Assembly: GCF_000179635.2 (NCBI RefSeq)
Contig: NC_014833.1
Span: forward strand, 780,001 to 812,000
DNA from: Ruminococcus albus 7 = DSM 20455
GTDB lineage: Bacteria; Bacillota; Clostridia; Oscillospirales; Ruminococcaceae
DNA: 32,000 bases
Direction: 5' to 3'
Under the pieces are notes generated by a model. It saw only the letters and a program-made list of their open reading frames with translations, ran no database searches and was not told where the DNA came from. Position numbers and translations under genes: made by a program. Positions 1 to 21,950 of this stretch are shown here, piece after piece (positions within the stretch are counted from its first letter, which is position 1; every line of letters starts with the position of its first letter).

Positions 1-248
1 TCAATGAGAAAGCTAAATGTGTAGCAACACTCGCCAACTATTATGATGTGATTTCTGAGTTACAGGAACAGTATTTATCAGCGACTTTCAATACCAAAGA
101 AATCATTGCAGGACAACTCAGACAGCTATGGTTTGAACTTGATGATATTTGCTGTGAACTATACAAAGTAACTGCTCAGGATAGACAGCAGATTATTAAT
201 ATGGGACGAACGGTAAGCCGTATCGACCTTCTGAATGGAGTTAAGTGA
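1..248 (+). CDS. 3' end of an ORF entering from the left edge; the tail resembles the C-terminal end of Eco57I/TaqI-type or HsdS-type R-M specificity modules
   Basis: Frame 3 is open from nt 3 (NEKAKCVATLANYYDV...) to TGA 246-248, so the listed Met at 48 is internal. The tail LWFELDDICCELYKVTAQDRQQII resembles the common ..D..v..lY.Lt.ee...I ending of such modules. The stop lies 1 nt before the next gene's ATG. Confidence 0.4.
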   Translation, partial: NEKAKCVATLANYYDVISELQEQYLSATFNTKEIIAGQLRQLWFELDDICCELYKVTAQDRQQIINMGRTVSRIDLLNGVK

Positions 249-249
249 T

Positions 250-2082
250 ATGAACATAAAACAGCTTGTAAATAAGTTGCTGAAAATATCAGGTGATGTT
301 ACAAGCATCGAGAAGGCATTGGTTTACTCTTTTGCTGATAAAATCGCTGTTGATACTAATAAGAGTCAGTGGTTGAAGAACTACTTATCAGATATTGATT
401 ATTCTATTGTAGATAAGGTCAATCAGATCACAGAGAGTAAGCTGACATTAAATGAACTTATCGCTATTTTTGAGATGCTCGTTCCTCAAAGCGAAAAGAA
501 GGAAAAAGGCGTAGTGTACACTCCTGAGATCATAACAAAATATATCGTCAGTCACACGCTTAACTGTAACAATATACCTACCGTACTTGATCCTTCATGT
601 GGCTGTGGTGCTTTTCTTGTTACAGCTGCCGAATATATACACGAAAGATATAGTATTTCGTATTCTGATATAATCTCATCTTATCTTTATGGTGTTGATA
701 TAGACAGCAATGCAATAGACAGGATCAAGTCTTTGCTATCATTAATTGTTCTCATGAATGGCGAAGAAGAAAAATGCAGCTTTAATTTTATATGTTCAGA
801 TACGCTTGATAAGAAAACGTATGATAAACTTCAGAAAATGCATAAGAACGGCTTCGATTGCGTAGTGGGCAATCCTCCGTATGTTCGTAATAAAAACATG
901 AGTGAAGACACAAAACGTCATTTGACTAATTGGGTATCATCATCAATTGGTAATGTTGATCTGTACATTCCTTTCTTTGAGATAGGTATTAACCTGCTCT
1001 CTGATAACGGCAGGCTTGGTTATATCTCACCAAACAGTTATCTGCAAGGCGTAAACGGAAGAAGTCTCAGGAAGTATTTTGCTGCTGAACAGCATCAGCT
1101 TGAAATTATTGATTTCAGGGATAGTCAGGTTTTTGAAAATGTTACAAGCTATACTTGCATAACTCTTATAGACAAGTCTGTTAAAACAGATGCTATCAAG
1201 TATTTCAGGTTAAATGAATCCAATACATTGGAAAAGCATACTTTCTCTGAGTATCATTTTACTGACTTCCCTGATGGCAAACCGTGGAGAATGAGAGAGA
1301 GCAGTATTGATGAGGTGATCCATAAGCTTGAATCATCAGGCACTCCGTTATCAAACTGGAAAATCCGTAATGGTCTTGCCACCTTGAAGAATGATATTTA
1401 CTTCTTTGCCCCGATAAAAGAAGACAATACATATTATTATAGAGAATATGACGGTAAGACATATAAAATAGAAAAGAAGCTCTGTATTAAAGTTGCTAAA
1501 CCGAACATCATCAAAAATGAAGCAGAGCTGGAAAAGAAAATGGAAATCGCTATTTTTCCATACACGCATACGGATAATGCTTATCAGCTTATTGATGAGG
1601 AATTGTTTAAATCTTCTTTTCCCGAAGCATATAATTTTCTTACCGAATACAAATCCATATTGCTTAACAGAGATAAGGGACACGGAAACTATCCTGCCTG
1701 GTATGCGTATGGAAGAACTCAGGGCATGAATAACTTTGGCAAGAAACTTCTAATTCCATATATAAGCGGAAGTCCTGTCGCTGTTATGTCCTTAGATCCC
1801 GATGTGTTATTCTACTGCGGATATGCTTTGCTCTCCGAGGATATTGAGGAACTGAAAATACTTAAAGTTTTTCTTGAATCAGAAGCGTTCTGGTATTATA
1901 TCTTCCACACAAGCAAGCCATACTCTAAGGGATATATGGCTTTTGCGAAGAATTACATAGTGAATTTTACAATACCTGAGCTTTCTGAAGAAGAAAAGAC
2001 ATATTTGTTGGAATCACACACTAGTGAAGAACTGAATGAATTTGTATGGGGAAAATACCATTGTAAACAGATGATTGTCTAA
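250..2082 (+). CDS. N6-adenine DNA methyltransferase, gamma class, Eco57I/TaqI-like, with a large C-terminal target-recognition region
   Basis: Motif I is VLDPSCGCGAFL and motif IV is VVGNPPYV (NPPY = nt 871-882). GVVYTPEII upstream is typical of Eco57I-type enzymes. About 350 aa follow the catalytic core. ATG 250 has GGAG 9 nt upstream; ATG 235 is an alternative start. Confidence 0.85.
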   Translation: MNIKQLVNKLLKISGDVTSIEKALVYSFADKIAVDTNKSQWLKNYLSDIDYSIVDKVNQITESKLTLNELIAIFEMLVPQSEKKEKGVVYTPEIITKYIVSHTLNCNNIPTVLDPSCGCGAFLVTAAEYIHERYSISYSDIISSYLYGVDIDSNAIDRIKSLLSLIVLMNGEEEKCSFNFICSDTLDKKTYDKLQKMHKNGFDCVVGNPPYVRNKNMSEDTKRHLTNWVSSSIGNVDLYIPFFEIGINLLSDNGRLGYISPNSYLQGVNGRSLRKYFAAEQHQLEIIDFRDSQVFENVTSYTCITLIDKSVKTDAIKYFRLNESNTLEKHTFSEYHFTDFPDGKPWRMRESSIDEVIHKLESSGTPLSNWKIRNGLATLKNDIYFFAPIKEDNTYYYREYDGKTYKIEKKLCIKVAKPNIIKNEAELEKKMEIAIFPYTHTDNAYQLIDEELFKSSFPEAYNFLTEYKSILLNRDKGHGNYPAWYAYGRTQGMNNFGKKLLIPYISGSPVAVMSLDPDVLFYCGYALLSEDIEELKILKVFLESEAFWYYIFHTSKPYSKGYMAFAKNYIVNFTIPELSEEEKTYLLESHTSEELNEFVWGKYHCKQMIV

Positions 2083-2095
2083 ATTGGTGAGAATT

Positions 2096-4312
2096 ATGAT
2101 TAAGAAAATAAAAATGCGTAATTGTGCCACATACGATGAAAGTGGCATAGAATTATCTGAGTGTTCAAAGGTTAATTTTGTTTACGGACCTAACGGAAGC
2201 GGAAAATCAACCATTAGCAACTATTTTCAAGATATAACAGAACCCAAATATGCAGATTGTAATGTGGAATGGGAATTCAATCAACCGTTAGAGGTGTTGG
2301 TTTATAACAGACATTTCAAGGAGACAAATTTCTCTGGTGATATAGACGGTATTTTCACACTTGGCAAAGATGTAATTGATGATATGACAGCTATAGATGC
2401 TTTGAAAGCGAGAAAAAAGGGATTATCAGATGAAGTAATAAAGAAAAAGACTATATTACAACAAAAGAAGGAAGAATTAGAGAAACATACACAGGATTTT
2501 CAAGATACGATCTGGAATGTCATATTAAAACAAAACGAAGCAGATTTTCAGGAAGCATTTGCAGGTTATAGAGGAAGTAAGAAAACCTTTTTCAATCAGG
2601 TGATTAAGCGTTACAAAGACGGACATTCTTCTCCACATTCACGAGAGGAGCTTCTGAAAAAAGCGTCAACCCTATTTGCTGAAAAGCCAGAAAAGCACGA
2701 TCTGTTAAAATTAGAATATAAAGATATTCTCGAAGAATTACATTCTGTGGAAACATCTGATCTTTGGGCTAAGCATATTGTTGGAAATCAAGATGTTCCG
2801 ATAGCAGCATTGATTTCTCATTTGGGCAACTCAGACTGGGTGCAAAATGGTATGAAATATTTAGGCGATGATTGTAAATGTCCTTTCTGTCAGCAAGACA
2901 CAATAACTGATGCATTAAAATCACAATTAGAACAATTCTTCAACAGAGAATATGAAACATATTTGCAAACATTATCTATTTTTCAAACCAGTTATGAAGA
3001 GTGCAGTCAGAGAATTTTCAAACTACTGACAGATATACTCACAAACGATTCATTCTTTTCAGTATCACAGGTTGATATTGGAAGAATAAAGACACTTATT
3101 GATGCTTTGCAAGCAAATATCAACGCTAATAAGAGTGAAATAGAGAAAAAAATTAAAGAACCCAGCCGTAGTGTGACGCTAAATCGTACCGATATTGAGT
3201 CCATTCTAAAACTGATTAGTGCAGGAAACGAAACAATTCAGAATCATAACACTATGGTTGATAACTTTGCGACTGAAAAGAATAACCTTATAGCAGAAAT
3301 ATGGACTTTTCTCCTTGATGAGCAAGAAGCACTAATTTCAGGATACTTAAAAGACTATAAAAACTATGATAAAGCAATAACAGGGATTAGTAGTTCCATC
3401 GACAGTTATGAGAAAGAAATCGATGAAAAAGAAAAACAAATAATAGAAAAAAACAAAAACATATCAAGTGTCCAACCCACAGTTGATGAGATAAACAGAT
3501 TGCTTAATGCGTATGGCTTTAATAATTTCAAGATTGTTCCTTCGCCTACAAAAGATAATTGTTATCAGATTCAACGTCCTGACGGATCATTGGCAAGTAA
3601 CACACTGAGTGAAGGCGAAGAAACATTCATATCCTTTTTGTATTTTTTACAACTTACTAAAGGTGCTACAGACATATCAAGAGTTTCTACTGAAAAAATA
3701 TTGATAATAGACGATCCTATTTGTAGCTTGGATAGTACAATTCTATATATTGTCAGTTGCTTGGTGAAATCATTAGTATGTGATGTCAAAAAAGGCGACT
3801 CAAATATAAAACAGATATTCATTTTTACGCATAATGTGTTCTTTCATAAAGAAGCTTCTTTTGTTGACGGTAAAATTGATAACTCAAACGATGTAAGTTA
3901 TTGGATATTGCATAAAGACGAGTCCGTTTCAAGAATAATTACGTATAAGCATAACAATCCCATTCACACTTCGTATGAACTTCTTTGGCGTGAATTAAGA
4001 GATACTAACACTTCATCTTTTATTACAATTCAAAATACAATGCGGCGTATTATTGAAAACTATTTTGGTATGCTTGGAAATCGGAAATACGACCATATAA
4101 AAAAGAAGTTTCAGACTATTGAAGAACAGCAGATCTGTGAATCATTGTTCTATTGGATAAACGATGGTTCACATTCAATTCCTGATGATTTGTACATTGA
4201 TAGTTATTCAGATTCAATTGAAAAATACAAAACAGTTTTCAAAGAAGTGTTTGATATTTCAGGGCATATTGCCCAATATAATATGATGATGGGTATTGAT
4301 GATAAAGCATAA
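2096..4312 (+). CDS. AAA_13-type ABC ATPase, RloC/PrrC-like putative anticodon nuclease
   Basis: Walker A is VYGPNGSGKST. The long helical middle region contains CKCPFCQQ (CxxC at the zinc-hook position). The ABC signature is LSEGEETF, Walker B is ILIIDDPICSLD and the H-loop is FIFTHN. The C-terminal MRRIIENYF...(about 40 aa)...DGSHS resembles the Arg/Glu/His region of PrrC/RloC. ATG 2096 is preferred over TTG 2075. Confidence 0.7.
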   Translation: MIKKIKMRNCATYDESGIELSECSKVNFVYGPNGSGKSTISNYFQDITEPKYADCNVEWEFNQPLEVLVYNRHFKETNFSGDIDGIFTLGKDVIDDMTAIDALKARKKGLSDEVIKKKTILQQKKEELEKHTQDFQDTIWNVILKQNEADFQEAFAGYRGSKKTFFNQVIKRYKDGHSSPHSREELLKKASTLFAEKPEKHDLLKLEYKDILEELHSVETSDLWAKHIVGNQDVPIAALISHLGNSDWVQNGMKYLGDDCKCPFCQQDTITDALKSQLEQFFNREYETYLQTLSIFQTSYEECSQRIFKLLTDILTNDSFFSVSQVDIGRIKTLIDALQANINANKSEIEKKIKEPSRSVTLNRTDIESILKLISAGNETIQNHNTMVDNFATEKNNLIAEIWTFLLDEQEALISGYLKDYKNYDKAITGISSSIDSYEKEIDEKEKQIIEKNKNISSVQPTVDEINRLLNAYGFNNFKIVPSPTKDNCYQIQRPDGSLASNTLSEGEETFISFLYFLQLTKGATDISRVSTEKILIIDDPICSLDSTILYIVSCLVKSLVCDVKKGDSNIKQIFIFTHNVFFHKEASFVDGKIDNSNDVSYWILHKDESVSRIITYKHNNPIHTSYELLWRELRDTNTSSFITIQNTMRRIIENYFGMLGNRKYDHIKKKFQTIEEQQICESLFYWINDGSHSIPDDLYIDSYSDSIEKYKTVFKEVFDISGHIAQYNMMMGIDDKA

Positions 4313-4335
4313 TCAAAAAGGTGAGGTGTTTAACC

Positions 4336-5328
4336 ATGTCAGAAGAAAAACGAGTATGGGGAATCCATACCCTTGATGATAATCTGTTCTTGAAAGAAAA
4401 CGTTGTAGCTATCGGTTGGAATGAAATTGGTGACCTTAGCAAGATCGCTCCGGACCGTGACGCATTCAAGAAAAAATACACTGAGACATATCCTGATGCT
4501 AAGAAAATGGGAATTGCAACCAGTGCAGGTATGCTATACCGATTTGCCCATGAAGTTCAGATTGGTGACTACATTGTATTCCCGTCAAAGATCAACAGAG
4601 AGATCAATATCGGAACTGTTGAGAGCAACTACATATACGAACCTGATACGGAAAGTTACGTTCAGCAGCGTAAAGTAAAATGGTTGAAGCACTTACCGAG
4701 GACTGCTTTTTCACAAGGAGCGTTGTATGAGATTGGTTCGGCATTATCTTTCTTTTCAGTCAAGAATTATGCTGACGAATTCCTTGCAGCTTTAGACAAG
4801 AACTTCAAGGGTACTGTTTCAGCAGATACCGCCGATGATGAAACTGTTGCTGCAACGGCAGACGAGATCATCGAAAACACAAGAGACTACATTCTTAAAG
4901 AACTGAGCCGAAATCTTAAAGGCTATGACCTTGAAGAATTTGTGGCTGATCTTTTGAGTGCTATGGGATATAGGACAACCATTTCCCCACACGGCGGTGA
5001 CAGCGGTATTGATATTACAGCCTATAAAGACGAGCTTCCGCCGAGGATACTTGTTCAGGTCAAGAGCCAGGACGGTGATATTAAGGAGACAACTATACAG
5101 TCACTGAAAGGTGCTATGCGTGAGGGTGATTATGGTCTGTTTGTGACGCTCTCAAACTACACTAAAAAGGCACAGAAATACCTCGACAATACACCGATTA
5201 TCCGTGGTATTAACGGTAAAGAGTTGGTCGATCTGATATTGAAATATTATGACAGCCTTAGCGAGAAATACAGGAAGATGATACCGTTGAAGATGGTTTA
5301 TATACCGGTAATAAATGCAATCGAATAA
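4336..5328 (+). CDS. Mrr-type PD-(D/E)xK restriction endonuclease with an N-terminal PUA/EVE-like putative reader domain
   Basis: The C-terminal half, GGDSGIDITAY...ILVQVKS, is an Mrr_cat-like D...QxK core. The N-terminal part (VWGIHT..VVAIGWNEIGDLS..IGDYIVF..RKVKWL) is a pattern seen fused to Mrr/McrB-type enzymes. RBS AAAGGTGAGG lies 9 nt upstream of ATG 4336. Confidence 0.7.
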   Translation: MSEEKRVWGIHTLDDNLFLKENVVAIGWNEIGDLSKIAPDRDAFKKKYTETYPDAKKMGIATSAGMLYRFAHEVQIGDYIVFPSKINREINIGTVESNYIYEPDTESYVQQRKVKWLKHLPRTAFSQGALYEIGSALSFFSVKNYADEFLAALDKNFKGTVSADTADDETVAATADEIIENTRDYILKELSRNLKGYDLEEFVADLLSAMGYRTTISPHGGDSGIDITAYKDELPPRILVQVKSQDGDIKETTIQSLKGAMREGDYGLFVTLSNYTKKAQKYLDNTPIIRGINGKELVDLILKYYDSLSEKYRKMIPLKMVYIPVINAIE

Positions 5329-5341
5329 CTATGGAGGAAAT

Positions 5342-7018
5342 ATGTTTCCAGAATATGAAGTATTAAAATTCAAGAATTACAAGTCATTTGAAGATTACTC
5401 ATATATCTCCAGTCTCAAAAACATAAATGTATTCATTGGAAAAAACAATTGTGGAAAATCAAGTTGCATCGACGTGTTGCAATCTTTAGTTGATAATAAA
5501 ATCAGTATTGGTAATGCCAAAGTTCAAATAGATTATCGAATGAAAGACAAAGATTACGATTTGATGATGAGCAAATCCAATTATAGTAAAACCTCAATGA
5601 TACGTCCAGACAAGGGTCAATTTATAGGTAAGATAATTAGTCTTAATATGAAGTCAGGATTCGCTGATAATTCTAAAAATAGAGAGTTTTATTATGATGG
5701 AAATAAAACTATTTTCTTTCAGAATGAATTAAGCGTTGATACAATTGTTGATGATTTTAATAGAAAAGTATGTGAAATAAAGCATTATAGATTAAATGCA
5801 GAAAGAAACATCTTACCAGAACAAGAAGATAAAAAAATATTTCTGTTAGAAAACGGTTCAGGTGCCACAAATGTGATTCTCCATGTTTTAAACTATGCAA
5901 ATTGTGATGAAAGACTTGTCCGTGTAGACGTTTTGAATGCCCTTAATCAGATTATGTATCCTGATTCAAAATATGATAATATTTCAATTCAAAAAGAAAA
6001 GAATGAAGAATGGGAAGTTTTTCTTTATGAAAATGACAACAGATTTCCATTATCCCAAATGGGAAGTGGATTAAAAACCATTATACTCGTTTTATTGAAT
6101 ATTTTAGTTATGCCTTGCATAATAGGCAGTACAGCTAATTCTCAGAACATAAACTATAAAAACATCGTTTTTTCTTTTGAGGAACTTGAAAACAATCTTC
6201 ACCCAGCTTTGCAACGAAGGTTATTTGAATACCTATATCATTTCAGTATTGAAAATGATACTACCATATTATTAACGACACATTCCCATGTTGCAATTAA
6301 TATGTTTTCTGATAAGAAAGAAGCTCAGTTATATCATGTTATTAAAGAAAAAGGTAAGTCTTCAATTAACAAAGTTGAAGATTATATCACAAAGTGCGAA
6401 ATACTGCAAGACCTTGATGTGAGGGCAAGTGATCTATTCCAGGCTAACGGTATAATATGGGTCGAAGGACCATCTGATAAAGTTTATATTAAGCATTGGC
6501 TTGAATTATGGGGTGATAGTGAACTTGTTGAAGGTATAGATTATCAATTTCTATACTATGGCGGTCGCATCTTATCACATTTCACTGCAAATCCGGATAG
6601 CCAAGATGATAATCTTATCAATATTCTTTCTACGAACAGAAATTCTGCCATTGTGATTGACAGTGATGTATGTGGTAAAAGAAAAGGTATCAATGTGACT
6701 AAGCAAAGAATTAAAGATGAATTCAAGTCAGTTGGTATGTTTTGTTGGATAACACAAGGAAAAGAAATAGAGAATTATATTCCCTATCAGGCAATAAACG
6801 CTGCTTATAATAGTAACCTCTCAAAACAATGTGGCAGAAATGAGTTGTTCCCGGACTACATAAAAAAAGTTATCGGTAAATCAAAGTTTGATAAAGTTAA
6901 TTTTGCTCACAAAGTAATAGGTTCAATAACTGCAGATGATACAAATAATATTCTTGATTTAAAAAGTAAGATTATTGAATTGAGCAATATGATCAAACAT
7001 TGGAATTCAAAAGAATAA
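5342..7018 (+). CDS. OLD-family-like nuclease: N-terminal ABC/AAA_15-21 ATPase fused to a C-terminal Toprim/DUF4435-like domain (RloA/RloB- or AbiL-like fusion)
   Basis: Walker A is IGKNNCGKSS, Walker B region is FSFEELENNLHP, followed by LLTTHS. The C-terminal IIWVEGPSDKVYI (Toprim Glu) and AIVIDSDV (DxD) complete the domain. GGAGG lies upstream of ATG 5342. Confidence 0.65.
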   Translation: MFPEYEVLKFKNYKSFEDYSYISSLKNINVFIGKNNCGKSSCIDVLQSLVDNKISIGNAKVQIDYRMKDKDYDLMMSKSNYSKTSMIRPDKGQFIGKIISLNMKSGFADNSKNREFYYDGNKTIFFQNELSVDTIVDDFNRKVCEIKHYRLNAERNILPEQEDKKIFLLENGSGATNVILHVLNYANCDERLVRVDVLNALNQIMYPDSKYDNISIQKEKNEEWEVFLYENDNRFPLSQMGSGLKTIILVLLNILVMPCIIGSTANSQNINYKNIVFSFEELENNLHPALQRRLFEYLYHFSIENDTTILLTTHSHVAINMFSDKKEAQLYHVIKEKGKSSINKVEDYITKCEILQDLDVRASDLFQANGIIWVEGPSDKVYIKHWLELWGDSELVEGIDYQFLYYGGRILSHFTANPDSQDDNLINILSTNRNSAIVIDSDVCGKRKGINVTKQRIKDEFKSVGMFCWITQGKEIENYIPYQAINAAYNSNLSKQCGRNELFPDYIKKVIGKSKFDKVNFAHKVIGSITADDTNNILDLKSKIIELSNMIKHWNSKE

Positions 7019-7027
7019 TCGTATATT

Positions 7028-7067
7028 TTCAAAATAAAAACAACGGCTGCACCCGAAGGCACAGCCG
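7028..7067 (-). terminator. Probable intrinsic terminator of the TnpV-like gene
   Basis: Hairpin CGGCTG..CAGCCG (7044-7067) is followed on the minus strand by a T-rich run (complement of 7031-7043, aaaataaaaacaa). Confidence 0.5.
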
Positions 7068-7074
7068 ATAATTC

Positions 7075-7484
7075 TCAGGTATAAAGCATACACTCAAACA
7101 CCGCCTCTCTCGCCATACTGATGAAGCAGTTTTCGAGACCAAGCATCTTCTCGGCATCACCGCTGAGGGCAGCTTTCTGATAACAACTGTCAGTCTGCTT
7201 CCAAAGCTCCACCTGGCGGGAGATAGCTTCACTGACTTTCAGTTCCATATCATCAAGGTACTGTATGATTTTCCCCTCATTAACGAGCCTGCTAAGCCTG
7301 TCAGGGCATTTGCTGTCGGAATAGTGAAGATGATACCTGATGAAGTCGGTGTTGTAGGTCTTGCTCTCCTCGGACTGCGTATCGGCATTGAAGTGTGTGA
7401 CGGTCACGGTATTGGTGTCCAGTCTCCACAGTGGAACGTATTTCTTTTTCAGTGGGTTGTATGCGGTCTGCTCACTTGTGTATC
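7075..7484 (-). pseudogene. TnpV-like transposon-associated protein, separated from its first codons and RBS by the IS66 insertion
   Basis: The C-terminal part (...RLSRLVNEGKIIQYLDDMELKVSEAISRQVELW...AREAVFECMLYT) follows the TnpV pattern as I remember it. Removing 7485-10500 restores AGGAGG (10520-10515), a 7-nt spacer and ATG (10507-10505), giving MSRYTSEQTAYNPLKKKYVPLWRLD... Confidence 0.6.
7477..7484. repeat. Target-site duplication, left copy (TGTGTATC)
   Basis: Identical 8-mer directly abuts both IS ends (7477-7484 and 10493-10500). Confidence 0.9.
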
Positions 7485-7501
7485 GTAAGCGTATAACCCC
7501 C
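7485..7501. repeat. IS66 left terminal inverted repeat
   Basis: GTAAGCGTATAACCCCC is the perfect reverse complement of 10476-10492. Partial matches extend about 6 nt further inward. Confidence 0.9.
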
Positions 7502-7625
7502 AGCACCTACCCCACCGAAGTCTAATAAAGTATAATAAACTCCAAGGAACACCATGAAGTAAATTGAATAATCCAAATTGATCCATGGAGTTCATTGGAG
7601 ACGATTAGACAAGGAGGTAACAGGT

Positions 7626-7943
7626 ATGGACAAAACAACATCCATCACAACAATCAAAAAAGAAATGCAGCTTCAGGAATGGTCTGCGCAGATCAAAGCA
7701 CAGCAGGCAAGCGGTCTGACGATCCGGGAATGGTGCAAAGAAAAAGGGATCAAGCCAAACACGTATTACAACCGCCTAAGAAAAGTTCGTGAAAAGTATA
7801 TCGAAAATTCTCCGACCATCGTTCCTGTATCAGTTCCTTGCTCAAACGAAAATATCCGCATTGAGAAAAACGGACTTCAAATATCTCTTCCGGCAGATAT
7901 ATCTGCGGACACTCTGACCGCTTTGGTGCATGAGCTATGCTGA
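7626..7943 (+). CDS. tnpA: IS66 accessory protein TnpA (HTH)
   Basis: MDKTTSITTIKKEMQLQEWSAQIKAQQASGLTIREWCKEKGIKPNTYYNRLRKV has the HTH pattern of IS66 Orf1. AAGGAGG lies upstream of ATG 7626. The stop overlaps the tnpB ATG (7937). Confidence 0.8.
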   Translation: MDKTTSITTIKKEMQLQEWSAQIKAQQASGLTIREWCKEKGIKPNTYYNRLRKVREKYIENSPTIVPVSVPCSNENIRIEKNGLQISLPADISADTLTALVHELC

Positions 7944-8293
7944 ATGATCTGGCAGCGGACGCACAGGTCTATCTTGTTACGGGATACACCGACCTTCGAC
8001 GCGGGATAGACGGACTTGCGACTATCGTTCAGGCTCAGCTTCGACTTGACCCGTTCTCGAAAGCATTGTTTTTGTTCTGCGGCAGACGTTGTGACCGCAT
8101 CAAAGGTCTGCTGTGGGAGGGCGATGGTTTTCTGCTGTTGTACAAGCGCCTTGACAACGGAAGATTCCAGTGGCCGCGCAGTGAGACCGAAGCAGTAATG
8201 CTCACATCTCAGCAAATTCGCTGGCTTCTGGAAGGCTTGAAAATAGAGCAGCCGAAGGCTATCCGTGAGGGAAAGCCGGGGGCGCTGTATTAA
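7937..8293 (+). CDS. tnpB: IS66 Orf2 / TnpB
   Basis: YLVTGYTDLRRGIDGLATIVQ...ALFLFCGRRCDRIKGLLWEGDGFLLLYKRLDNGRFQWP is the classic IS66 Orf2 signature. Confidence 0.9.
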   Translation: MLNDLAADAQVYLVTGYTDLRRGIDGLATIVQAQLRLDPFSKALFLFCGRRCDRIKGLLWEGDGFLLLYKRLDNGRFQWPRSETEAVMLTSQQIRWLLEGLKIEQPKAIREGKPGALY

Positions 8294-8385
8294 GGCAATA
8301 CTTACCGAATATTCAGAATATGTGCTTGAAAAGCCCCTCTTTTCGTGGTATCATTAAAGTATCATCACGAACGGAGGGGTGCTTT

Positions 8386-9899
8386 ATGTCCGAACCAAAT
8401 ATGACATCGGAAATTGTATCGCTCCGTAATGAAAACGCTGTTCTCAAGGAAGAACTAGCACTTGCCAATCAGCAGTTAGCGTGGTTCAGAAAGCAGATAT
8501 TCGGAAGAAAAACAGAGCAGACATCTGTTGTTATGGAAAAGGAGTTCGGTGTTCAGCTTTCCATGTTCGGAAACAATGAAGAAAAATCCGCAGCTAAAAT
8601 CTGCCGAAACAATTACTGTTCCCGAACACAAGCGCAAGAAAAAACGCACTCACGATGAATGGATGAACAATCTGCCTGTAAAAGAAGAACATCACAAAAT
8701 TGACAACCCGGTATGCGAAATATGCGGCGCCGAAATGGAAGAACTGACTCCCGAAAAAGGCTTACGATGAACTTATATTTACGCCGCCAAAATATCATAT
8801 CCGCAGGCATATAGTACATAAGTACAAGTGTCCCGAGTGCGGAGAAAAGCCCGAAGAAAGGGACGAACCTTGTCATATCATCCGTGCGCCATATCCTCAC
8901 GCTATGATCCCGGGAAGCTATTGCTCTCCCGAACTTCTGGCTCATATCATCTACGAAAAATATGCAAAGTCAGTACCTCTGCACCGTCAGGAAAAGGACT
9001 TTAATTCCAAAAACATACCTCTGCTCAAAGCGACTATGTCTAATTGGGTAGGCACTGCTGCCGAAAAATGGTGTTTGCCGATTGTGGAGAAAATGCATGA
9101 GATGCTTATCGCAGGGCAGATGATCCATGCCGATGAAACGACCGTTCAGGTGCTTCGCGAGGAAGGCCGAAAGCCTACCACGACATCAAGAATGTGGGTC
9201 TACTGCAACGGCAAAATGAATGACAGGAGCATCATCATTTTCGATTATCAGCCGACACGAAAGGGTGAGCACGCCTCGAATTTCCTGAAAGGATTTATCG
9301 GCTATCTTATCTGTGACGGATACGATGCCTACAATGCAGTCGAGGGTGCTAAGCGATGCGGCTGTATGACTCATGCAAGGCGTGGTTTTATTCAGGCTCT
9401 TCCGAACGACCAAAAGCTGCACAGCACTTCTGTTGCGGCAAAGGCAGTAGAATATTTCAACAAGATATATCACGAAGAAAATCTGCTTGCCGACAGCTCC
9501 ACAGAATACAGATATAAACAGCGCCTTGTGAAGGTAAAGCCTTTGCTTGACGAGTTTTTTGCGTGGCTTGAAAATGTTCAGGTCAGTGGTAAGGGCAAGC
9601 TGACAGATGCAGTAAGATATGCGTTGAATGAACGGAAATATCTTTACACGTTTCTTGAAAACGGAGACGTGCCTATCGACAACAACAGAGCCGAAAACGC
9701 AATAAGACCGTTTGCGTTAGGCCGAAAAAATTGGCTGTTTTCAAATACAGCAAACGGAGCCAGATCAAGTGCAACGCTGTATTCGATCATTTCAACTGCA
9801 CAGGCGAACGGTGTTGATGCTGAGAAATACCTGACCGAGCTGTTTTCACAGCCTGCGGGGACGATATTATTACCATGGAGGGAAGAAAATGAAACTTAG
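8386..9899 (+). pseudogene. tnpC: IS66 DDE transposase TnpC, broken by two +1 frame changes
   Basis: The N-terminus (LAWFRKQIFGRKTEQ) is in frame 1 up to about 8600. The zinc-finger part (NPVCEICGAEMEEL) is in frame 2 up to 8770. The rest (KYKCPECG...HADETTVQVL...PIDNNRAENAIRPFALGRKNWLF) is in frame 3 up to 9899. Confidence 0.85.
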
Positions 9900-10428
9900 T
9901 AATGAAGATGCAAAGCTGTTTTATGAACTGTTTTTTCCACTGCTTGACTATGTGAACAGAGAATATCATATACTTCCTGAGGAAGATTATTTCGGGCAAG
10001 GAATGATCGACCCACAGGACGCTGCGGAGGTTGCCCACTTTTTATGGGAACGGACATGGATCATTGATGATTATCTTGAGCGATCGGATCTGCCCGAAGA
10101 ACACATGGAGATACTTAAAAGCTGGAAAGGGTGCATCACCGGCAGATTTATCATTGAGCGACATTGGAAAAAGGGATCGGTATTTATATCGATCGATGAC
10201 AATTCTGTTTTTCTTGTAAACGGCATTGTCAGCAGTTGGGAGGAAATGCTGAGAAATGCACCGATGCCAACTTTGCTTGATGCAGCGCTTCTGCCATTTA
10301 AAAATGCGATCATTTCCGATGGCCTGGTATCTGTTATGCCGATCATATTCGGTCCGAACAGCAAAGCTGATTTCAAAGAAATATACATGGACGCAAAGAG
10401 AAATGGAGAAATCAAAGCCAGAATATGA
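9889..10428 (+). CDS. Hypothetical protein (179 aa), passenger ORF inside the IS66 element
   Basis: ATG 9889 overlaps the tnpC stop (9897-9899), with GGAGGG 5 nt upstream. The ORF ends 48 nt before the right IR. I recognise no family. Confidence 0.55.
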   Translation: MKLSNEDAKLFYELFFPLLDYVNREYHILPEEDYFGQGMIDPQDAAEVAHFLWERTWIIDDYLERSDLPEEHMEILKSWKGCITGRFIIERHWKKGSVFISIDDNSVFLVNGIVSSWEEMLRNAPMPTLLDAALLPFKNAIISDGLVSVMPIIFGPNSKADFKEIYMDAKRNGEIKARI

Positions 10429-10492: not shown

Positions 10493-10500
10493 TGTGTATC
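10493..10500. repeat. Target-site duplication, right copy (TGTGTATC)
   Basis: Identical to 7477-7484. Confidence 0.9.
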
Positions 10501-10567
10501 TGCTCATAAAAAATCCTCCTACTTATCGTTCAGATGTATCAGCGAGCGGTCATAAAAATATGCTCAT

Positions 10568-10654
10568 TTTGTCCGCTGATATGATCTGCACATCGGTTAA
10601 AAACGAATAAGTACAAGGGTATGTCGAATGGTTTTTGTCCGCTATTTGTCCGCT
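10568..10654. repeat. Three direct copies of TTTGTCCGCT (10568-10577, 10634-10643, 10645-10654)
   Basis: Exact 10-mers; the last two are tandem with a 1-nt gap. They lie in the non-coding stretch between the TnpV-like start and the 3' end of the integrase gene. Confidence 0.8.
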
Positions 10655-10803
10655 AAGGGTGCAAAAACTTAGCGAAAAACAGGATAAACGGACTTTTGTG
10701 ATTTGTTCTAAAATGCCGTATTTTCGGGATTTTCTGCATATCTCGACAAGTCACGAAAAGTGCGCCGAGACTTTCAATTCCCGTACGGGTCATACTTTTG
10801 AGT

Positions 10804-10914: not shown

Positions 10915-12105
10915 TCAGGCACCTCTCGGCTCTTTTTTACTGCATGAAAAATCAAGCGCTGCACTGACTGCTTCGGAGACTTTTGCCCTTGCTTCGTCGA
11001 GCATATGACAGTAAATATTACTCGTTGTTGAGACCGTCGAGTGTCCTAACGCTCCCGAGACTGTCACGATGTCAACGCCCTGGTTGACGAGAAGCGATGC
11101 GAACAAGTGCCTGAAGCTGTGCAATCCATAGAACGGAAGGTCGTGTTTCTCACAGAACTCTCCCAGCCAGAAGTAAGGTGTGCCGTTCTGCATGGGCAGT
11201 CCGTTCCACTTGGTGTATAGCCTGTCGGTCTCAACCCACTTGTCACCGCATTTGAGAGCCTGCATATCCTGTTCGTCCTTGTACTCACGGAGCATATCCA
11301 TTATCTCCTGCGGAAATTTCAGCGTCCTCTGGGATTTCTTTGTCTTGGTGGTATCGGTGTACGTTCCCTTTCTGCCTGTGTAGTTGCTTGTTCTGCGGAT
11401 GCTGATGATATTATGCTCGAAGTCCACATCTTTCCATTCAAGACCCAGCATCTCACCACGGCGGAAACCGCTGAATATCATCAGGTTGAAGAATGTGCGG
11501 TACTTCAGAGGCTCATCGTTCAGCAGTGTGAGGAATCTCTGCACCTGTTCGGGCGTGTAGATCTTCTTTTCTGCCTGATTGTTCTTCGGCAGTGTGACCT
11601 TTGAGCATGGATTGTCGTTCACCACGCCCATTTTTACGGCGTAGCTGAATACATCGGATACGAAGCTCAGGTTGTGCCTTATGGTCTTGGGTGCGAGAGG
11701 TTTTCCCGTGCGCTCATTGGCTCCCTCTCTTGAAAGAGAATTTACGAATGCCTGTATCTGCCTCGGGGTTATCTTGTCCATTCTCATGTGACCAAGTGCA
11801 GGGTATATCCTTCCCCTGAGCTGGAGCATACGCTCGTATGTGGTGTTTCTGAGGTTCGGCTTTGCGTATTCCTCAAACCACTGCTCGGCGAAAACCTCGA
11901 ACTTTATCGCCTTGCTCTGATAGCCCTTGTTGCAGGCTTCCTCGAACATGACAGCCTGCCTGTTTACCTCCTTCTCGATCTGCTTCCTGGTCATGCCCGT
12001 TTCGGGCTTCCAGGTCATAGACTGTATCATCTGTTTGCCTTTGCTGTTATAGCCGCAGCTCACCCTTATGGAGTAGCTGTCGCCGCGTTTTTTTATAGTA
12101 GCCAT
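10915..12105 (-). CDS. int: Tyrosine-type site-specific integrase
   Basis: N-terminal SAM-like region, then C-terminal FSGFRRGEMLGLEW (Arg), LHSFRHLFASLL (HxxR) and GHSTVSTTSNIYCH (His...Tyr). GGGAGGA RBS lies upstream. Confidence 0.9.
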   Translation of the reverse strand: MATIKKRGDSYSIRVSCGYNSKGKQMIQSMTWKPETGMTRKQIEKEVNRQAVMFEEACNKGYQSKAIKFEVFAEQWFEEYAKPNLRNTTYERMLQLRGRIYPALGHMRMDKITPRQIQAFVNSLSREGANERTGKPLAPKTIRHNLSFVSDVFSYAVKMGVVNDNPCSKVTLPKNNQAEKKIYTPEQVQRFLTLLNDEPLKYRTFFNLMIFSGFRRGEMLGLEWKDVDFEHNIISIRRTSNYTGRKGTYTDTTKTKKSQRTLKFPQEIMDMLREYKDEQDMQALKCGDKWVETDRLYTKWNGLPMQNGTPYFWLGEFCEKHDLPFYGLHSFRHLFASLLVNQGVDIVTVSGALGHSTVSTTSNIYCHMLDEARAKVSEAVSAALDFSCSKKEPRGA

Positions 12106-12211
12106 AAAATTTCCTCCCTGGAAATATCACAGCGTACCTTTCCGATATCAATTGTAGCGCAATATACCGGCTTTGTCAAGGCACGCTGTCCGAACTTGTT
12201 AAGACCGGCGG

Positions 12212-12763
12212 CTATCCTCCCTTCTTTTCCATAAATCTTTCTATATCCTTCACGACCCCTTTCATTGAGAACCTGCCTGCTTTATTGTAATCTATGAACT
12301 CACGGCACAGGTATTCCGCCCATTCCAGGTGATGCAGGCTGTATACGAAACGCTCATCGGGCTTTTCGGCAGGGGAGCGCGGTGCATATTCCTGCCAGTC
12401 ACGCATAAGCCACAGGTAATCATTGAGTGTTCGCCACGCCTGTTTCTCCCACTGTTCGTAAGCCCTGCGTTCTTCTGCTCGCTTCACGTATTCGCTCGCT
12501 TCTTTCGCAGTCGGGGCTTGTCCGATGCTTATGTTAAGACCGAAGTCGCTGTTCAGCTTCTTCACCGCATCTATGGGCTTTGCCAGCCCGAACATCTTCT
12601 GCGTGAAGCTTATCACATCGGCGGACTCGCCGCAGCCGAAGCAGTGGAGCCTTTGGGGGTAGACCTTAGCCGAGGGCGTTTTCTCCGCATGGAACGGACA
12701 CAGGCACATACCCGACCTGTTAATGTGCAGTCCGTACCCGAGGGCAACTGTCTTCATATCCAC
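12212..12763 (-). CDS. CHC2 zinc-finger (DnaG-primase-type) protein
   Basis: CLCPFHAEKTPSAKVY...LHCFGCGESADVISF is the CHC2 primase zinc-finger motif. Confidence 0.75.
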   Translation of the reverse strand: MDMKTVALGYGLHINRSGMCLCPFHAEKTPSAKVYPQRLHCFGCGESADVISFTQKMFGLAKPIDAVKKLNSDFGLNISIGQAPTAKEASEYVKRAEERRAYEQWEKQAWRTLNDYLWLMRDWQEYAPRSPAEKPDERFVYSLHHLEWAEYLCREFIDYNKAGRFSMKGVVKDIERFMEKKGG

Positions 12764-12789
12764 GGCCTGCCTGGCTTCTTCAAAAACAG

Positions 12790-13077
12790 TTATTTTCGGA
12801 AATATGCCATAAGATCAGCTTTGTTTACCAGTATCTTTCCCCGCTTGCCTGCACCGGTGCGGACTGACTTTACTTTTTCCTGCGCCACCAGCTGTCTCAC
12901 AGTATGCTCTGAGAGTCCCTGTATGACCTCGGTGCATTCCCTGATGGTGAGCATCTCCACAGGCTGTGAGGCGGTCTCACGGCTTTCAGGCTGCGTCTCG
13001 GCACCATCGTTTACGAGCCGTATCAGCAGCTCGTAGATATTGTCAACTATGATCTTCTTTTCAATACTGCTCATCAT
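12790..13077 (-). CDS. Excisionase-family helix-turn-helix DNA-binding protein
   Basis: MLTIRECTEVIQGLSEHTVRQLVAQEKVKSVRTGAGKRGKILVNKADLMAYF has an HTH_17/Xis-like pattern. GGAGG lies 8 nt upstream of ATG 13077; the longer listed N-terminus overlaps the upstream gene. Confidence 0.65.
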   Translation of the reverse strand: MMSSIEKKIIVDNIYELLIRLVNDGAETQPESRETASQPVEMLTIRECTEVIQGLSEHTVRQLVAQEKVKSVRTGAGKRGKILVNKADLMAYFRK

Positions 13078-13094
13078 ATATGCTACCTCCATCA

Positions 13095-14066
13095 TTACTG
13101 TTCTGCTTTTGGCAGCGACCAGTACCACTGACCGCTGCGTTTGACCGACTTCACACCAAGGACTTTCTTTGCTTCGTCCAGTGTTCGCTTCGAGATATTT
13201 GAGAATTTCGCTTTGGCGGTTATTATCTGCTGTGAGATCTCGCCGTTTTTCAGCTCCTCCTGCAGAAGCTCCATAGCCTGTCTGCCCTTGGACTTTGTAC
13301 CTACGCCCATAAGTATCTCATCGATATTGCACTCATACTCGCCCCTGAAATAAAAACCCCTGTCAGGGTCAAGCTCAAAGGCTACTGTTTTTCCCTCGGG
13401 GGCGAGACTGCTTTTCGTGTGGGCGATCATTCTGAAATTCGGGTTTTCCTTGTCCCTTGCCACTATCAGTACGCTTCGTGCGGCGGCTGTTATATCGATG
13501 GAGCCAAGCCCGCGGTATGTTGACTTCATTCCCATTGCCTTGTTCATGTGACCGATAAGCACTATGGCACAGCCGTACTTCTCTGCGATCGCTCCCAGGT
13601 GACTCATAACGGGGCGTATCTCATTGGCTCTGTGCATATCAACTTCCGCCCCGATATATGCCTGCAAAGGGTCGAGGATAACGAGCTTCGCTCCGGTATG
13701 TGCGATGGCTGCTTCAAGACGTTTGTCCGACATGGTGACGTTCCTTTCGCTCTCGTTTATCACGATGATATGAGAGCAGTCTGCACCTGCACTGAGAAGT
13801 CTCGGTTTGACTGTGTCGGAAAGTTCGTCCTCAGCCGTCTGGTAGATTACGTTCATGGGCTCGCATTTCTCCTGCGACTGCGGAAACATACCCTGTGTAA
13901 GCAGGGCGGCGACATTCAGTATCAGTGTCGTCTTGCCCTCACCCGGGTCACCCTGTATGACCGTTATCTTCCCGAAGGGTATGTAGGGATACCACAGCCA
14001 CTTGGTTTCCGTAGCCTGTACTCTGTCCATGTAGATGAGTTCGTTGGATATCATTTCATTGTGCAA
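13095..14066 (-). CDS. RepA/AAA_25-like RecA-superfamily ATPase (replication or helicase-loader type of integrated elements)
   Basis: Walker A is IQGDPGEGKTT and Walker B region is KLVILDPLQAY, followed by VLIGHMNKA. The start is TTG, with AAGGGAG 7 nt upstream. Confidence 0.7.
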   Translation of the reverse strand: MHNEMISNELIYMDRVQATETKWLWYPYIPFGKITVIQGDPGEGKTTLILNVAALLTQGMFPQSQEKCEPMNVIYQTAEDELSDTVKPRLLSAGADCSHIIVINESERNVTMSDKRLEAAIAHTGAKLVILDPLQAYIGAEVDMHRANEIRPVMSHLGAIAEKYGCAIVLIGHMNKAMGMKSTYRGLGSIDITAAARSVLIVARDKENPNFRMIAHTKSSLAPEGKTVAFELDPDRGFYFRGEYECNIDEILMGVGTKSKGRQAMELLQEELKNGEISQQIITAKAKFSNISKRTLDEAKKVLGVKSVKRSGQWYWSLPKAEQ

Positions 14067-14798: not shown

Positions 14799-14839
14799 TT
14801 GCAAGGTTGCAGGTTTTTATAATGTTTGCAACCTTGCAA
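14799..14839. repeat. Perfect 13-bp inverted repeat TTGCAAGGTTGCA / TGCAACCTTGCAA with a 15-nt AT-rich spacer
   Basis: 14799-14811 and 14827-14839 are exact reverse complements. The spacer contains TATAAT. Confidence 0.8.
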
Positions 14840-15059
14840 TGTTGAACTGAAATTTTTTTATGATATTCTGTAAATATTTTCGGAAATCAACAACAAATCT
14901 GCGAATTTTCTACCTATATATATGAGGGGGAAAATAATCAGCATTCTTAGACGGCGTCCGTGACTGATGCCGGGATGAATTATTTTTCAAAAAAATAAGA
15001 GCCGAAAGGCTCATTACGAATATGCTCCCGAAGGGTGCAGATCACACCTAGCAAGCACG

Positions 15060-15096
15060 GTATGGTGTGGGTACAAATTTGAAAAACACACCATAC
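15060..15096. repeat. Perfect 10-bp inverted repeat GTATGGTGTG / CACACCATAC with a 17-nt loop
   Basis: 15060-15069 and 15087-15096 are exact reverse complements, about 65 bp upstream of the MobC-like gene. Confidence 0.8.
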
Positions 15097-15160
15097 AAAG
15101 CTTGTGAGAGGGACACCCCTCAGACCCCGATGATCAACATAAGAAAGAGAGGTATTTTTA

Positions 15161-15523
15161 ATGAGAAGAAGGACGAATAAAATGCAGAAAAGCAAGCGTG
15201 ATATTTTCCTGAAGATCAGAGTTACTGAAGAAGAACTTGAAGCGTTCAGACGCAAGTTCAATAACAGCGGAATGAAGACATTTTCCGGCTTCCTGAGAGC
15301 GATGATACTGGAGGGATATATCGTTCGTTTCAACGAAGATGAGCTTCGTGAAATTTATCGCCTGGCGACGAACATTAACGGCAATATAAATCAGATATTG
15401 CGTCACGTTGACCGTGATGATAATTCTTTTGACAGCGACATCGCAGAGATCAAAGAAAAGATGTATCAGATCTGGCAGGCGATGATCTATTTTCAGGGGA
15501 AGAATTTACAGTTGAAACACTGA
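15161..15523 (+). CDS. mobC: MobC-like relaxosome accessory protein (ribbon-helix-helix)
   Basis: IFLKIRVTEEELEAFRRKF...GFLRAMIL and LATNINGNINQILRHV match the MobC family motif (..iG.NiNQia..lN). Confidence 0.75.
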   Translation: MRRRTNKMQKSKRDIFLKIRVTEEELEAFRRKFNNSGMKTFSGFLRAMILEGYIVRFNEDELREIYRLATNINGNINQILRHVDRDDNSFDSDIAEIKEKMYQIWQAMIYFQGKNLQLKH

Positions 15524-21037: not shown

Positions 21038-21950
21038 TCTTTGGAAAGTAATTAGTGTTAATACTGGAGTTACTACCGCAAGGCGAATTGATGCTGAGCA
21101 TCCTTTGGATTTTTTTGCATCATATGACGAAGAAAACAGAATGCAGCTTCTGCTGATATCGGATATCCTTCCGGTCCTGCCTAATTCCAGCAAACAAATC
21201 TTAGTGCGTGCAAACCCGAGAAATGATGGCAAATTTGCAATTTGCTTTTCACTTACTGATTCTGCTTTGAAGGAGCTGTTTTTTTCACTAACTTGGGATA
21301 TAATGAATTGTACTTATGATATCTCTGATCGTCATGTCGGAATTAATAAAGCTGTAAGCAGATTCAAAAAATGGCAAAAGATGTTTGCTGCTTCAAAGGA
21401 TAAGATGTCAAGTACTCAAGTCAAGGGATTGATTGGAGAACTCATTTTACTTAGGGATATATGTATTGATAAATATGGCGTAAAGAAAGCTATTGAGGGC
21501 TGGGTTGGTCCGCTTGGAACTGATCAGGATTTTCAGTTCGATGATACGTGGTATGAAGCGAAAGCAGTGTCTGCCAGCATGGATAAAGTTAACATTTCAT
21601 CTTTTGAACAGTTTGAAAGTGACAAGGACGGTTTTTTGATTGTTAACAGAATTGAAAATACATCACCTTTAGATCCGGATAGTTTTACACTTAAAACGTT
21701 AACTCAAAGAATATATGATATAATTAGTAACGATGCCGATCTTAAGTCATTATTCCATATGCGTCTTATATTGTATGGATATAATGAAACAGATGATCAC
21801 TATGATGAAAGTTATAAACTCATAGCTACAGAAAAGTATTTGGTTGACGAAGCTTTTCCCAAAATAATAAGAAGCAAATTGGATGCATCAATCTGCGATG
21901 GAAGCTATGAGATAAGTATTCCAGCAATACAAGGCTGGAGAATCGTATGA
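21015..21950 (+). CDS. PD-(D/E)xK nuclease-fold protein (DUF4420-like)
   Basis: GLIGELILL...DQDFQFDDTWYEAKAV is a D...ExK-type core. GGAGGAGGA lies 7 nt upstream of ATG 21015. The gene overlaps the last 23 nt of the Z1 gene. Confidence 0.6.
   Translation: MTTTEISDLWKVISVNTGVTTARRIDAEHPLDFFASYDEENRMQLLLISDILPVLPNSSKQILVRANPRNDGKFAICFSLTDSALKELFFSLTWDIMNCTYDISDRHVGINKAVSRFKKWQKMFAASKDKMSSTQVKGLIGELILLRDICIDKYGVKKAIEGWVGPLGTDQDFQFDDTWYEAKAVSASMDKVNISSFEQFESDKDGFLIVNRIENTSPLDPDSFTLKTLTQRIYDIISNDADLKSLFHMRLILYGYNETDDHYDESYKLIATEKYLVDEAFPKIIRSKLDASICDGSYEISIPAIQGWRIV

Follow-up and report, generated by a model that had tools for sequence, protein, structure and literature searches.

Introduction

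The closest described counterparts of the gene at the center of this study are the restriction-linked anticodon nucleases (ACNases) RloC and PrrC. RloC, described from Geobacillus kaustophilus and Acinetobacter baylyi and found in the hsd loci of Campylobacter jejuni, is defined by ABC ATPase motifs, a coiled-coil insert with a CXXC zinc hook and a C-terminal Arg-X3-Glu-X36-52-His triad, in which a Ser often precedes the His (PMC2610378). It has its own internal zinc-hook silencer, and the G. kaustophilus enzyme (GkaRloC) is switched on by ATP and linear DNA (PMC3458546). PrrC, by comparison, has about 400 amino acids (aa), lacks the coiled-coil/zinc-hook insert, always resides in a type Ic hsd locus and needs the restriction-modification (R-M) protein as silencer. 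We have analyzed a 32,000-nucleotide stretch of Ruminococcus albus 7 (= DSM 20455; NC_014833.1, positions 780001 to 812000), hereafter the window, whose first 7018 positions carry five co-oriented open reading frames (ORFs), one of which encodes an RloC-like protein.

An original prediction, made from the letters of the window, had described these ORFs as one operon chaining a methyltransferase (MTase), an RloC-like ACNase, an Mrr-type endonuclease and an OLD-like ATPase-Toprim nuclease, and had proposed that they might act as one layered system in which the R-M proteins mask the tRNase. All four modules turned out to be of types already known, namely the remnant of an Eco57I-type R-M system, RloC, a probably type IV nuclease of the Mrr type and a class-1-like OLD nuclease. 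As for their relationship, positions 1-7018 probably represent a stretch of a mosaic defense island, in which four functionally independent, swappable modules stand head-to-tail.

A member of the RloC family

The third ORF of the block (2096 to 4312, plus strand) encodes a 738-aa protein, which is somewhat shorter than the 804 aa of RloC. It matched AAA_13 at 3e-176 over 713 of the 713 profile positions and the PADLOC model PDC-S06 at 1e-247. The ABC ATPase motifs were all recognized, with Walker A (GPNGSGKST) at residue 31, the signature LSEGE at 504, the Walker B/D-loop LIIDDP at 536 and the linchpin His in THN at 578, and their core residues were invariant or nearly so in an alignment with 12 homologs of 51-94% identity. 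The insert comprised between residues 31 and 504 carries a CPFC hook at its midpoint (residues 262-265). Its arms are poor in Pro and Gly (3-6%, vs 8-11% in the segments of the ATPase head and 12% in the hook) and rich in E, K, Q, R, L and A (40-47%, vs 27-28% in the heads), and residues 326-466 gave a weak SMC-related match.

The C-terminal region contains the triad R650-X3-E654-X38-S692-H693, located within RRIIENYF (residue 650) and NDGSH (residue 689). The spacing of 38 residues falls in the published range, and the Ser preceding the His is also present. The hook cysteines, R650, E654 and S692-H693 were invariant in the same homologs. In agreement with these assignments, a homolog with 52% identity is named "wobble nucleotide-excising tRNase" (JGI), and prophage homologs with 25% identity are annotated as "translation-disabling ACNase." A sequence search of the PDB with the RloC-like protein gave no match. 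By the published sequence criteria, the 738-aa protein is therefore a member of the RloC family, with a Rad50-like ABC ATPase, a zinc hook and a putative C-terminal ACNase domain. This sustains the description of an ABC ATPase with CxxC hook and PrrC-like R..E...H tail that had been given from the motifs.

The genomic setting also resembles that of a described RloC. The G. kaustophilus rloC adjoins an hsdR relic within a transposon (PMC2610378), and the window gene, compared by the published criteria, likewise adjoins the relic of a restriction gene in DNA rich in insertion sequences (IS). It differs in that the linked R-M system is an Eco57I-like one of type IIG and not one of type I or III. 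The non-type-I context proposed for this gene was thus borne out: the type IIG system lies on its 5' side, and its relatives repeatedly show similar arrangements.

The resemblance to PrrC and its partner EcoPrrI is more partial. The PrrC profile matched residues 446-720 (8e-11), that is, a homologous ATPase C-lobe plus ACNase region, and the context is restriction-linked in both cases. However, the window protein is larger and has the hook insert, and its neighbors are a type IIG remnant and a methylase instead of hsdMSR. A silencing R-M protein of the PrrC kind is not part of this arrangement. By analogy with characterized RloC, the window nuclease would be autonomous and kept silent by its internal zinc-hook switch. 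ATP and DNA ends, a sign of DNA damage, would then trigger it to excise the wobble nucleotide of tRNA, so that translation would stop in an abortive-infection response.

Breakpoints at gene borders and changing neighbors

We have collected 80 loci with RloC-like relatives, one genome per species, and searched them with the window proteins. An Mrr-type neighbor was found in three loci only (L006, L007 and L008), where RloC is more than 92% identical to that of the window, and was absent in the other 77. The window's own methylase had a counterpart (94% identity) in a single locus, L006, more distant Eco57I-type MTases being located upstream of RloC in several others. The OLD gene was found in 0 of the 80 loci. 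A gene set conserved across divergent relatives, as expected for a single system, was not observed, and the specific gene chain was seen only in near-identical contigs.

The DNA alignments gave a more precise view of where the similarity stops. Positions 6-5315 of the window match L006 at 92.6%, and the match resumes at 7039-7484. L007 and L008 match positions 2051-5326 and 2762-5297, respectively, and hence share RloC and the Mrr-type gene only. L089, a contig of Ruminococcus sp. YRD2003, matches positions 4301-7061 at 87%, which comprises the Mrr-type gene and the OLD gene only; there, an Mrr homolog with 91% identity is followed by an OLD gene with 86% identity, without RloC or MTase. The breakpoints at 2051, 4301, 5315 and 7039 therefore correspond to the MTase/RloC, RloC/Mrr, Mrr/OLD and OLD/flank borders.

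The neighbors on either side of each family vary as well. Upstream of RloC, L007 has a PDC-S41 gene and a Fic protein gene and no methylase, and L008 is likewise without methylase. Mrr homologs with 80-81% identity lie directly behind BREX operons, and OLD homologs lie behind a type I R-M system plus SIR2 or behind an MmeI-type enzyme. Moreover, PADLOC treats PDC-S06 and PDC-S02, the models that matched the RloC and Mrr-type proteins, each as a single-gene candidate, and the authors of the RloC work observe that rloC often travels as single cargo (PMC3458546). Taken together, the breaks at gene borders and the differing neighbors of each family argue that each gene behaves as an independent cassette in a recombination hot-spot. 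These observations speak against the proposal of one integrated five-gene system, since no gene border is without a break in synteny. First-line and back-up defenses would then be layered through co-location in such a hot-spot and not through an obligate protein complex.

An orphan methyltransferase and its decayed type IIG partner

The second ORF (250 to 2082, plus strand) encodes a predicted gamma-class N6-adenine methyltransferase of the Eco57I family. It matched Pfam Eco57I (3.9e-32) and N6_Mtase (8.7e-24) and, over its full length, the PADLOC MTase_II model PDLC03335 (2.8e-122). Motif I (DPSCGCG, residue 114) precedes NPPY (residue 208), which is the order of the gamma class, so that the type II-like gamma methyltransferase announced by the original prediction was confirmed at the level of profiles and motif order.

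The origin of the first ORF became apparent from the NCBI contig L001 (8.3 kb), which is 99.99% identical to the window and adds about 800 bp to its left. Within the window, positions 1 to 248 (plus strand) hold the 3' remnant of a type IIG R-M gene, consisting of a target-recognition domain and C-terminal tail, and appear to be a non-functional leftover. In L001 the ORF has 243 aa, with a TaqI_C match of 1.8e-5, and is 92% identical to the last 239 aa of a 1022-aa protein of L006, which is a full-length PADLOC REase_MTase_IIG (PDLC03604, 4e-168). The DNA homology to L006 begins at L001:329, corresponding approximately to codon 784 of 1022, and the tail of an IS5-family transposase is found directly upstream; the remnant ends at the IS5 transposase about 470 bp left of the window. 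The earlier suggestion that this truncated ORF ends like a specificity module and that the system extended further to the left was correct as regards its past, the ORF being in this genome a dead remnant cut by IS5.

In L006, the intact type IIG gene precedes the 94%-identical methylase (8140-9987). Because of this order, and of the IS5 cut here, the window methylase can be identified by sequence as the companion M of an Eco57I-like type IIG system, the R-M gene of which was lost to the IS insertion. A complete system of this kind consists of an intact bifunctional gene and a separate methylase, as in L006 (the type IIG enzyme of 1022 aa and, behind it, an Eco57I-family methylase of 615 aa), and loci of the L013 type carry in addition an M_Eco57I_C domain. 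The window differs in retaining only the last ~240 codons of the type IIG gene next to an intact methylase, which is the only component that could still function. The IS5 element would have taken out about three quarters of the 1022-aa R-M gene, and the putative N6-methyladenine methyltransferase would persist as an orphan.

Decay of the same kind of gene was seen elsewhere. In L010 (514-3539), an isolate genome, and in L016 (5298-8333), a type IIG gene of 1011 aa is broken into two parts, with the companion methylase and RloC intact; in L016, as in L006, errors in the assembly of a metagenome-assembled genome may underlie the apparent gene decay.

An Mrr-type nuclease with a DUF8426 domain

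The fourth ORF (4336 to 5328, plus strand) encodes a 330-aa protein with an N-terminal DUF8426 domain and a C-terminal Mrr_cat PD-(D/E)XK nuclease domain. Mrr_cat (PF04471) matched residues 192-301 at 3.3e-24 over 114 of 115 profile positions, and PADLOC PDC-S02 matched at 2e-140. The motifs GGDSGID (residue 220) and VQVK (residue 240) were identified, and D226 and Q241-V-K243 are invariant, in agreement with the D...QxK core on which the assignment to Mrr-type endonucleases had been based. In L006, the Mrr-type gene (12226-13229) is frameshifted and RloC is intact.

The N-terminal domain had been described as PUA/EVE-like. We could not corroborate this label: the first 170 residues correspond to Pfam DUF8426 (PF28530), and no Pfam EVE, PUA, SRA or Mrr_N match was obtained for them. 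A PDB sequence search gave no meaningful match for DUF8426, even with a 29-sequence profile, and the whole Mrr-type protein gave chance matches only. The AlphaFold2 (AF2) model of the protein has a mean predicted local distance difference test (pLDDT) score of 61, with the N-domain below 50. In Foldseek, the best whole-chain matches were MspJI and AspBHI (E 2e-7, ~268 columns), which calls for caution given the low score of the modeled N-domain.

DUF8426 is present in 3393 representative proteins. Among its fusion partners are McrB-like AAA_5 motors (in 4 of 10 proteins sampled), an HSDR_N nuclease, TIR plus DUF4268, and DUF4145. Such promiscuity, seen in the fusion proteins P0376, P0387, P0409, P0421, P0442, P0453 and P0487, is typical of sensor or reader domains of defense proteins. 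Indirectly, the McrB-like fusions and the Foldseek matches, the latter being no more than suggestive, fit with DUF8426 being a candidate reader of DNA modification. Like the MspJI/AspBHI-type and Mrr enzymes, the window protein combines a C-terminal Mrr_cat PD-(D/E)XK domain having the D...QxK core with a putative N-terminal DNA-reader domain; it differs from them in that this domain is DUF8426, without sequence match to EVE, SRA, Mrr_N or PDB chains. Judging from its domains, the 330-aa protein is probably a type IV, modification-dependent restriction enzyme. It would act as a stand-alone Mrr-family nuclease in which DUF8426 most likely reads modified phage DNA. In the papers found, the models PDC-S02 and PDC-S06 were encountered in genome surveys only, with no functional test.

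A stand-alone OLD nuclease in an exchange slot

The fifth ORF (5342 to 7018, plus strand) encodes a 558-aa protein that matched AAA_15 (2.7e-20) and AAA_21 (1e-16). Walker A (residue 33), FEELENNLHP, TTHSH, WVEGPSD (373), IDSD (439) and EIENY were all conserved in a 22-sequence alignment, in which the core residues of these motifs, and among them the metal ligands E375, D440 and D442, are invariant. The Pfam OLD-like_TOPRIM match was below threshold (0.053), and the Toprim call was settled by structure: the AF2 model (pLDDT 83) aligned in Foldseek over its full length with GajA (2e-14), the retron Eco8 effector and the Thermus OLD structure 6p74. A homolog with 86% identity is named "ATP-dependent endonuclease of the OLD family" (NCBI). 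The earlier identification of an OLD-like ATPase-Toprim nuclease therefore stands, supported by the ATPase matches, the invariant E/DxD and the full-length structural matches.

With the P2 Old (class 1), Thermus OLD, GajA and Eco8 effector nucleases the protein shares an ABC ATPase joined to a Toprim domain bearing E375, D440xD442 and E475/E477. In contrast to these, it has no GajB/UvrD helicase, retron or AriB partner. No helicase gene (GajB/UvrD) was found beside the OLD gene in the window, L089, L097 or L105. Sequence and model thus place the 558-aa protein in the OLD family as a class 1-like member with no helicase partner adjacent, and the Pfam score indicates that it would belong to a divergent stand-alone branch. 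As the fourth module, it would act as a stand-alone class-1-like OLD ATPase-Toprim nuclease.

The position of this gene (5316-7038) is occupied differently in related loci. It holds the OLD gene in the window, a Ser/Thr kinase (PD-T4-6/mad6-like) in L006 (13245-14804) and a 284-aa ORF of unknown function in L008 (2652-3506). The flanks of the slot, namely the Mrr-type gene and a 143-aa minus-strand ORF, are conserved at 85-93%, and the slot looks like a clean site of exchange of defense cassettes. The 143-aa ORF (7075 to 7506, minus strand) marks the right border of the variable slot. In L006, a segment lying beyond the kinase (14803-15252) has 85% DNA identity with this ORF, for which no Pfam or PADLOC match was obtained. 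In L008, a 143-aa minus-strand ORF is found at the equivalent position, next to an integrase. The island may be carried by a mobile element of whose backbone this ORF is a part. In L089 (10836-12241), genes for Nmad2 and Nmad3 lie behind the Mrr-type and OLD pair, and further on come those for an integrase and a D5-type primase, another mobile-element context for these cassettes.

Operon layout and linkage of RloC to restriction genes

Some observations weigh against full independence of the modules, and the first concerns the compactness of the block. All five ORFs lie on the plus strand, as given in the original prediction and in agreement with the ORF list, and direct reading of the junctions 248/250, 2082/2096, 4312/4336 and 5328/5342 gave the same gaps of 1, 13, 23 and 13 nt. 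Each start is preceded by a Shine-Dalgarno (SD)-like sequence: GGAG at 237-240 before ATG 250, GGTGAG before ATG 2096, AGGTGAGG before ATG 4336 and GGAGG before ATG 5342. The gene callers chose ATG 235 for the methylase and ATG 5315 for the OLD gene, and the methylase sequence read from ATG 250 had no exact match on record. The starts at 250, 2096, 4336 and 5342, which are those of the original prediction, are the ones with SD-like sequences, and 5342 is favored over 5315 because the OLD homologs have 558 aa.

A consensus scan for terminators in 1-7018 found none on the plus strand, as had been claimed, and three on the minus strand (4.0 +/- 2.1 matches expected from shuffles). A GC-rich hairpin at 7044 to 7067, identified from a minus-strand call and by direct reading, lies between the convergent OLD gene and 143-aa ORF and is likely the terminator that ends the co-oriented block. 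Rfam found nothing in 1-7018, and a megablast of the same region against plasmids gave no match. Co-orientation, short gaps and the lack of an internal plus-strand terminator indicate that the four modules are probably co-transcribed. The tight spacing with SD-like sequences suggests that such co-transcription would leave room for coordinated regulation.

The second observation concerns the genes upstream of RloC. RloC relatives are recurrently located just 3' of R-M genes, which make up about 24 of 70 upstream neighbors and include type IIG enzymes of at least four PADLOC families. A Pfam tally of the 70 immediate upstream neighbors gave 12 with an Eco57I methylase domain, 5 with M_Eco57I_C, 4 with Methylase_S, 3 with RE_AlwI, 2 with N6_N4_Mtase, and 1 each with RE_NgoBV and EcoR124_C. 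This tally and PADLOC spot checks were added to a single-seed phmmer annotation of the neighbors, which under-counts R-M genes (16-18 loci). PADLOC located type IIG enzymes directly upstream of RloC or one gene further, namely PDLC03604 in L006 and the L013 group, PDLC03625 in L017, PDLC03606 in L072-74 and PDLC03627 in L079. In L018, the second gene upstream encodes an MmeI-type enzyme. RloC is also found beside type III Res or Mod (L085 and L084) and AlwI-like REases (L041, L044 and L060), and the classic order hsdM-hsdS-rloC-hsdR was seen in L043 and L051.

In addition, two lineages have retained the order type IIG enzyme (PDLC03604), separate MTase and RloC, although the identity between their RloC proteins is only 50% and their companion MTases differ. 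Overall, R-M linkage amounts to ~30% of 70-80 RloC relatives as a raw count without a background model, vs 8/72 (~11%) in the 2008 survey (PMC2610378).

Alternative readings of the block

These data bear most directly on the possibility that RloC is coupled to the neighboring type IIG system alone, either as a guard that responds to its inhibition or as a sensor of DNA ends, with the Mrr-type and OLD genes being passengers and the coupling being broken here by IS5. Such a coupling would be compatible with the PDLC03604 enzyme, M gene and RloC occurring together in L006 and in L010/L013/L016/L028/L029, with the other type IIG families upstream of RloC, and with its type I, type III and AlwI-like neighbors. 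The activation of GkaRloC by ATP and linear DNA and the hsdR relic beside its gene point in the same direction. However, about 70% of the relatives have no adjacent R-M gene, and upstream of RloC there are PDC-S41 and Fic genes, or nothing, in the close relatives L007 and L008. The counts are inflated, since several of the linked loci represent the same mobile element in different copies. R-M or BREX systems are also found beside OLD and Mrr genes, so that adjacency may reflect a general clustering in islands. We regard this reading as unlikely, although it is a reasonable minority hypothesis that RloC is functionally tied to type IIG enzymes, either guarding them or sensing restriction-made DNA ends.

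In a more specific version, RloC would be recurrently wired just downstream of type IIG/IIS enzymes as a restriction-triggered second line of defense, which seems to us rather improbable. With the same reserve, the window might be seen as a decayed example and L006, L013, L017, L072 and L079 as intact ones. It is equally doubtful that the DNA ends made by the neighboring enzyme on phage DNA, or the inhibition of that enzyme, would switch on the tRNase.

The proposal that the five genes form one layered restriction and abortive-infection system, with the methylase and/or the Mrr-type protein masking RloC as EcoPrrI masks PrrC, has become very unlikely. The genes are co-oriented and closely spaced, the PrrC/EcoPrrI pair provides a precedent (PMC2610378, PMC12707154), and the pair RloC plus Mrr is common to L006, L007 and L008. 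Nevertheless, this pair was seen only at more than 92% identity, Mrr homologs occur without RloC, and in L006 RloC is intact next to the frameshifted Mrr gene. The methylase is absent in L007 and L008. The cognate type IIG gene is cut here, L010 and L016 have it in split form, and L007 and L008 lack it, with all catalytic RloC residues kept. Since RloC remains intact without a type IIG partner and has a published internal silencer, besides being described as rarely R-M-linked, masking by the methylase or by the Mrr-type protein is not a probable mechanism.

The original prediction had further noted that a methyltransferase next to a modification-reading Mrr-type enzyme needs explaining. One explanation would be that the methyltransferase and the DUF8426-Mrr nuclease are a cognate R-M pair, methylation shielding the host DNA. 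Both genes do lie in one co-oriented block, and the N-domain of the Mrr-type protein matches part of the PADLOC REase_II model (9e-19). Yet RloC lies between them, recombination breakpoints separate the two, and the methylase is paired with the type IIG gene in L006. The Mrr-type gene is found without an adjacent methylase in L007, L008, L089 and behind BREX, and the fusion of DUF8426 to McrB-like motors is typical of modification-dependent enzymes. We consider such a pair highly improbable and the proximity of the two genes coincidental: the methylase has the type IIG gene as its partner, and the Mrr-type gene moves independently, for instance behind BREX operons.

The possibility that the block represents a version of MADS, Gabija, PARIS or a similar named system of several genes can be practically dismissed, as the weak PADLOC/NCBIfam matches to mad2, mad3, GajA and AriA cover only generic P-loop or methylase cores. 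MADS was rejected on NCBIfam scores of 35.5 for MAD2 (cut-off 720) and 22.9 for MAD3 (cut-off 420), and Gabija and PARIS were rejected with no GajB/UvrD partner and no separate AriB/DUF4435 gene present.

Further defense systems and mobile elements in the window

The remainder of the window is full of further defense systems and mobile elements, which fits with a recombination hot-spot. After the 143-aa ORF, an IS66-family element (7578-9899) comprises an HTH transposase ORF, TnpB_IS66 (1e-40) and DDE_Tnp_IS66 (3e-89), the N-terminal part of the transposase appearing split into overlapping ORFs (8320-8770). Its GC content is ~45%, vs 33-38% in the defense genes. Positions 10493-10792, a 300-bp segment beyond this element, are 94% identical to L007 13781-14081, about 1 kb downstream of the Mrr-type gene of that locus. 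An ancestral backbone common to the window and L007 is thereby suggested, into which both the OLD cassette and the IS66 element would have been inserted.

A small integrative element within the island was found at 10915-14066 (minus strand, ~51% GC), with a tyrosine integrase, a CHC2 zinc-finger primase-like protein and an AAA_25 RepA/DnaB-like ATPase, and a NikA-like mobilization gene lies at 15161-15523. A second defense cluster (16791-26131, plus strand) encodes proteins with HATPase_c_3 (MORC-like GHKL, 488 aa), Z1 (927 aa), DUF4420 PD-(D/E)XK (322 aa) and AIPR (703 aa), together with a C5 cytosine methylase (543 aa; Dcm) and Vsr (139 aa). This methylase is predicted to add 5-methylcytosine to the host DNA, a mark of which any Mrr-type enzyme that is modification-dependent would need to be tolerant when present in the same cell.

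The tRNA cluster at 26980-27696, the sole Rfam match in the window, contains four genes by Rfam and three by ARAGORN (Leu-TAA, Tyr-GTA and Ser-GCT) and is a plausible integration hot-spot. It is followed, at 27903-31417, by an AAA_14/DUF4143 ATPase and an AbiEi/AbiEii-like pair.

Discussion

What looked like a tidy five-gene operon is thus best described, in our view, as a patchwork of interchangeable single-gene defenses with joints at the gene borders, and this calls for caution when defense systems are discovered on the basis of adjacency. The domain identities, the breakpoints at gene borders and the varying neighborhoods are what the data show, the biochemical activities and triggers of all modules being inferred. 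Two leads emerge from the analysis. DUF8426 is an abundant, uncharacterized candidate modification reader, fused to Mrr, McrB-like, HSDR_N and TIR modules. The other lead is the repeated finding of RloC just behind R-M genes, those of type IIG among them. Should this arrangement be functional, the idea of a guard on restriction would broaden beyond PrrC and type I enzymes, and a restriction-triggered RloC, if true, would carry the PrrC/type I paradigm over to R-M enzymes made of a single chain.

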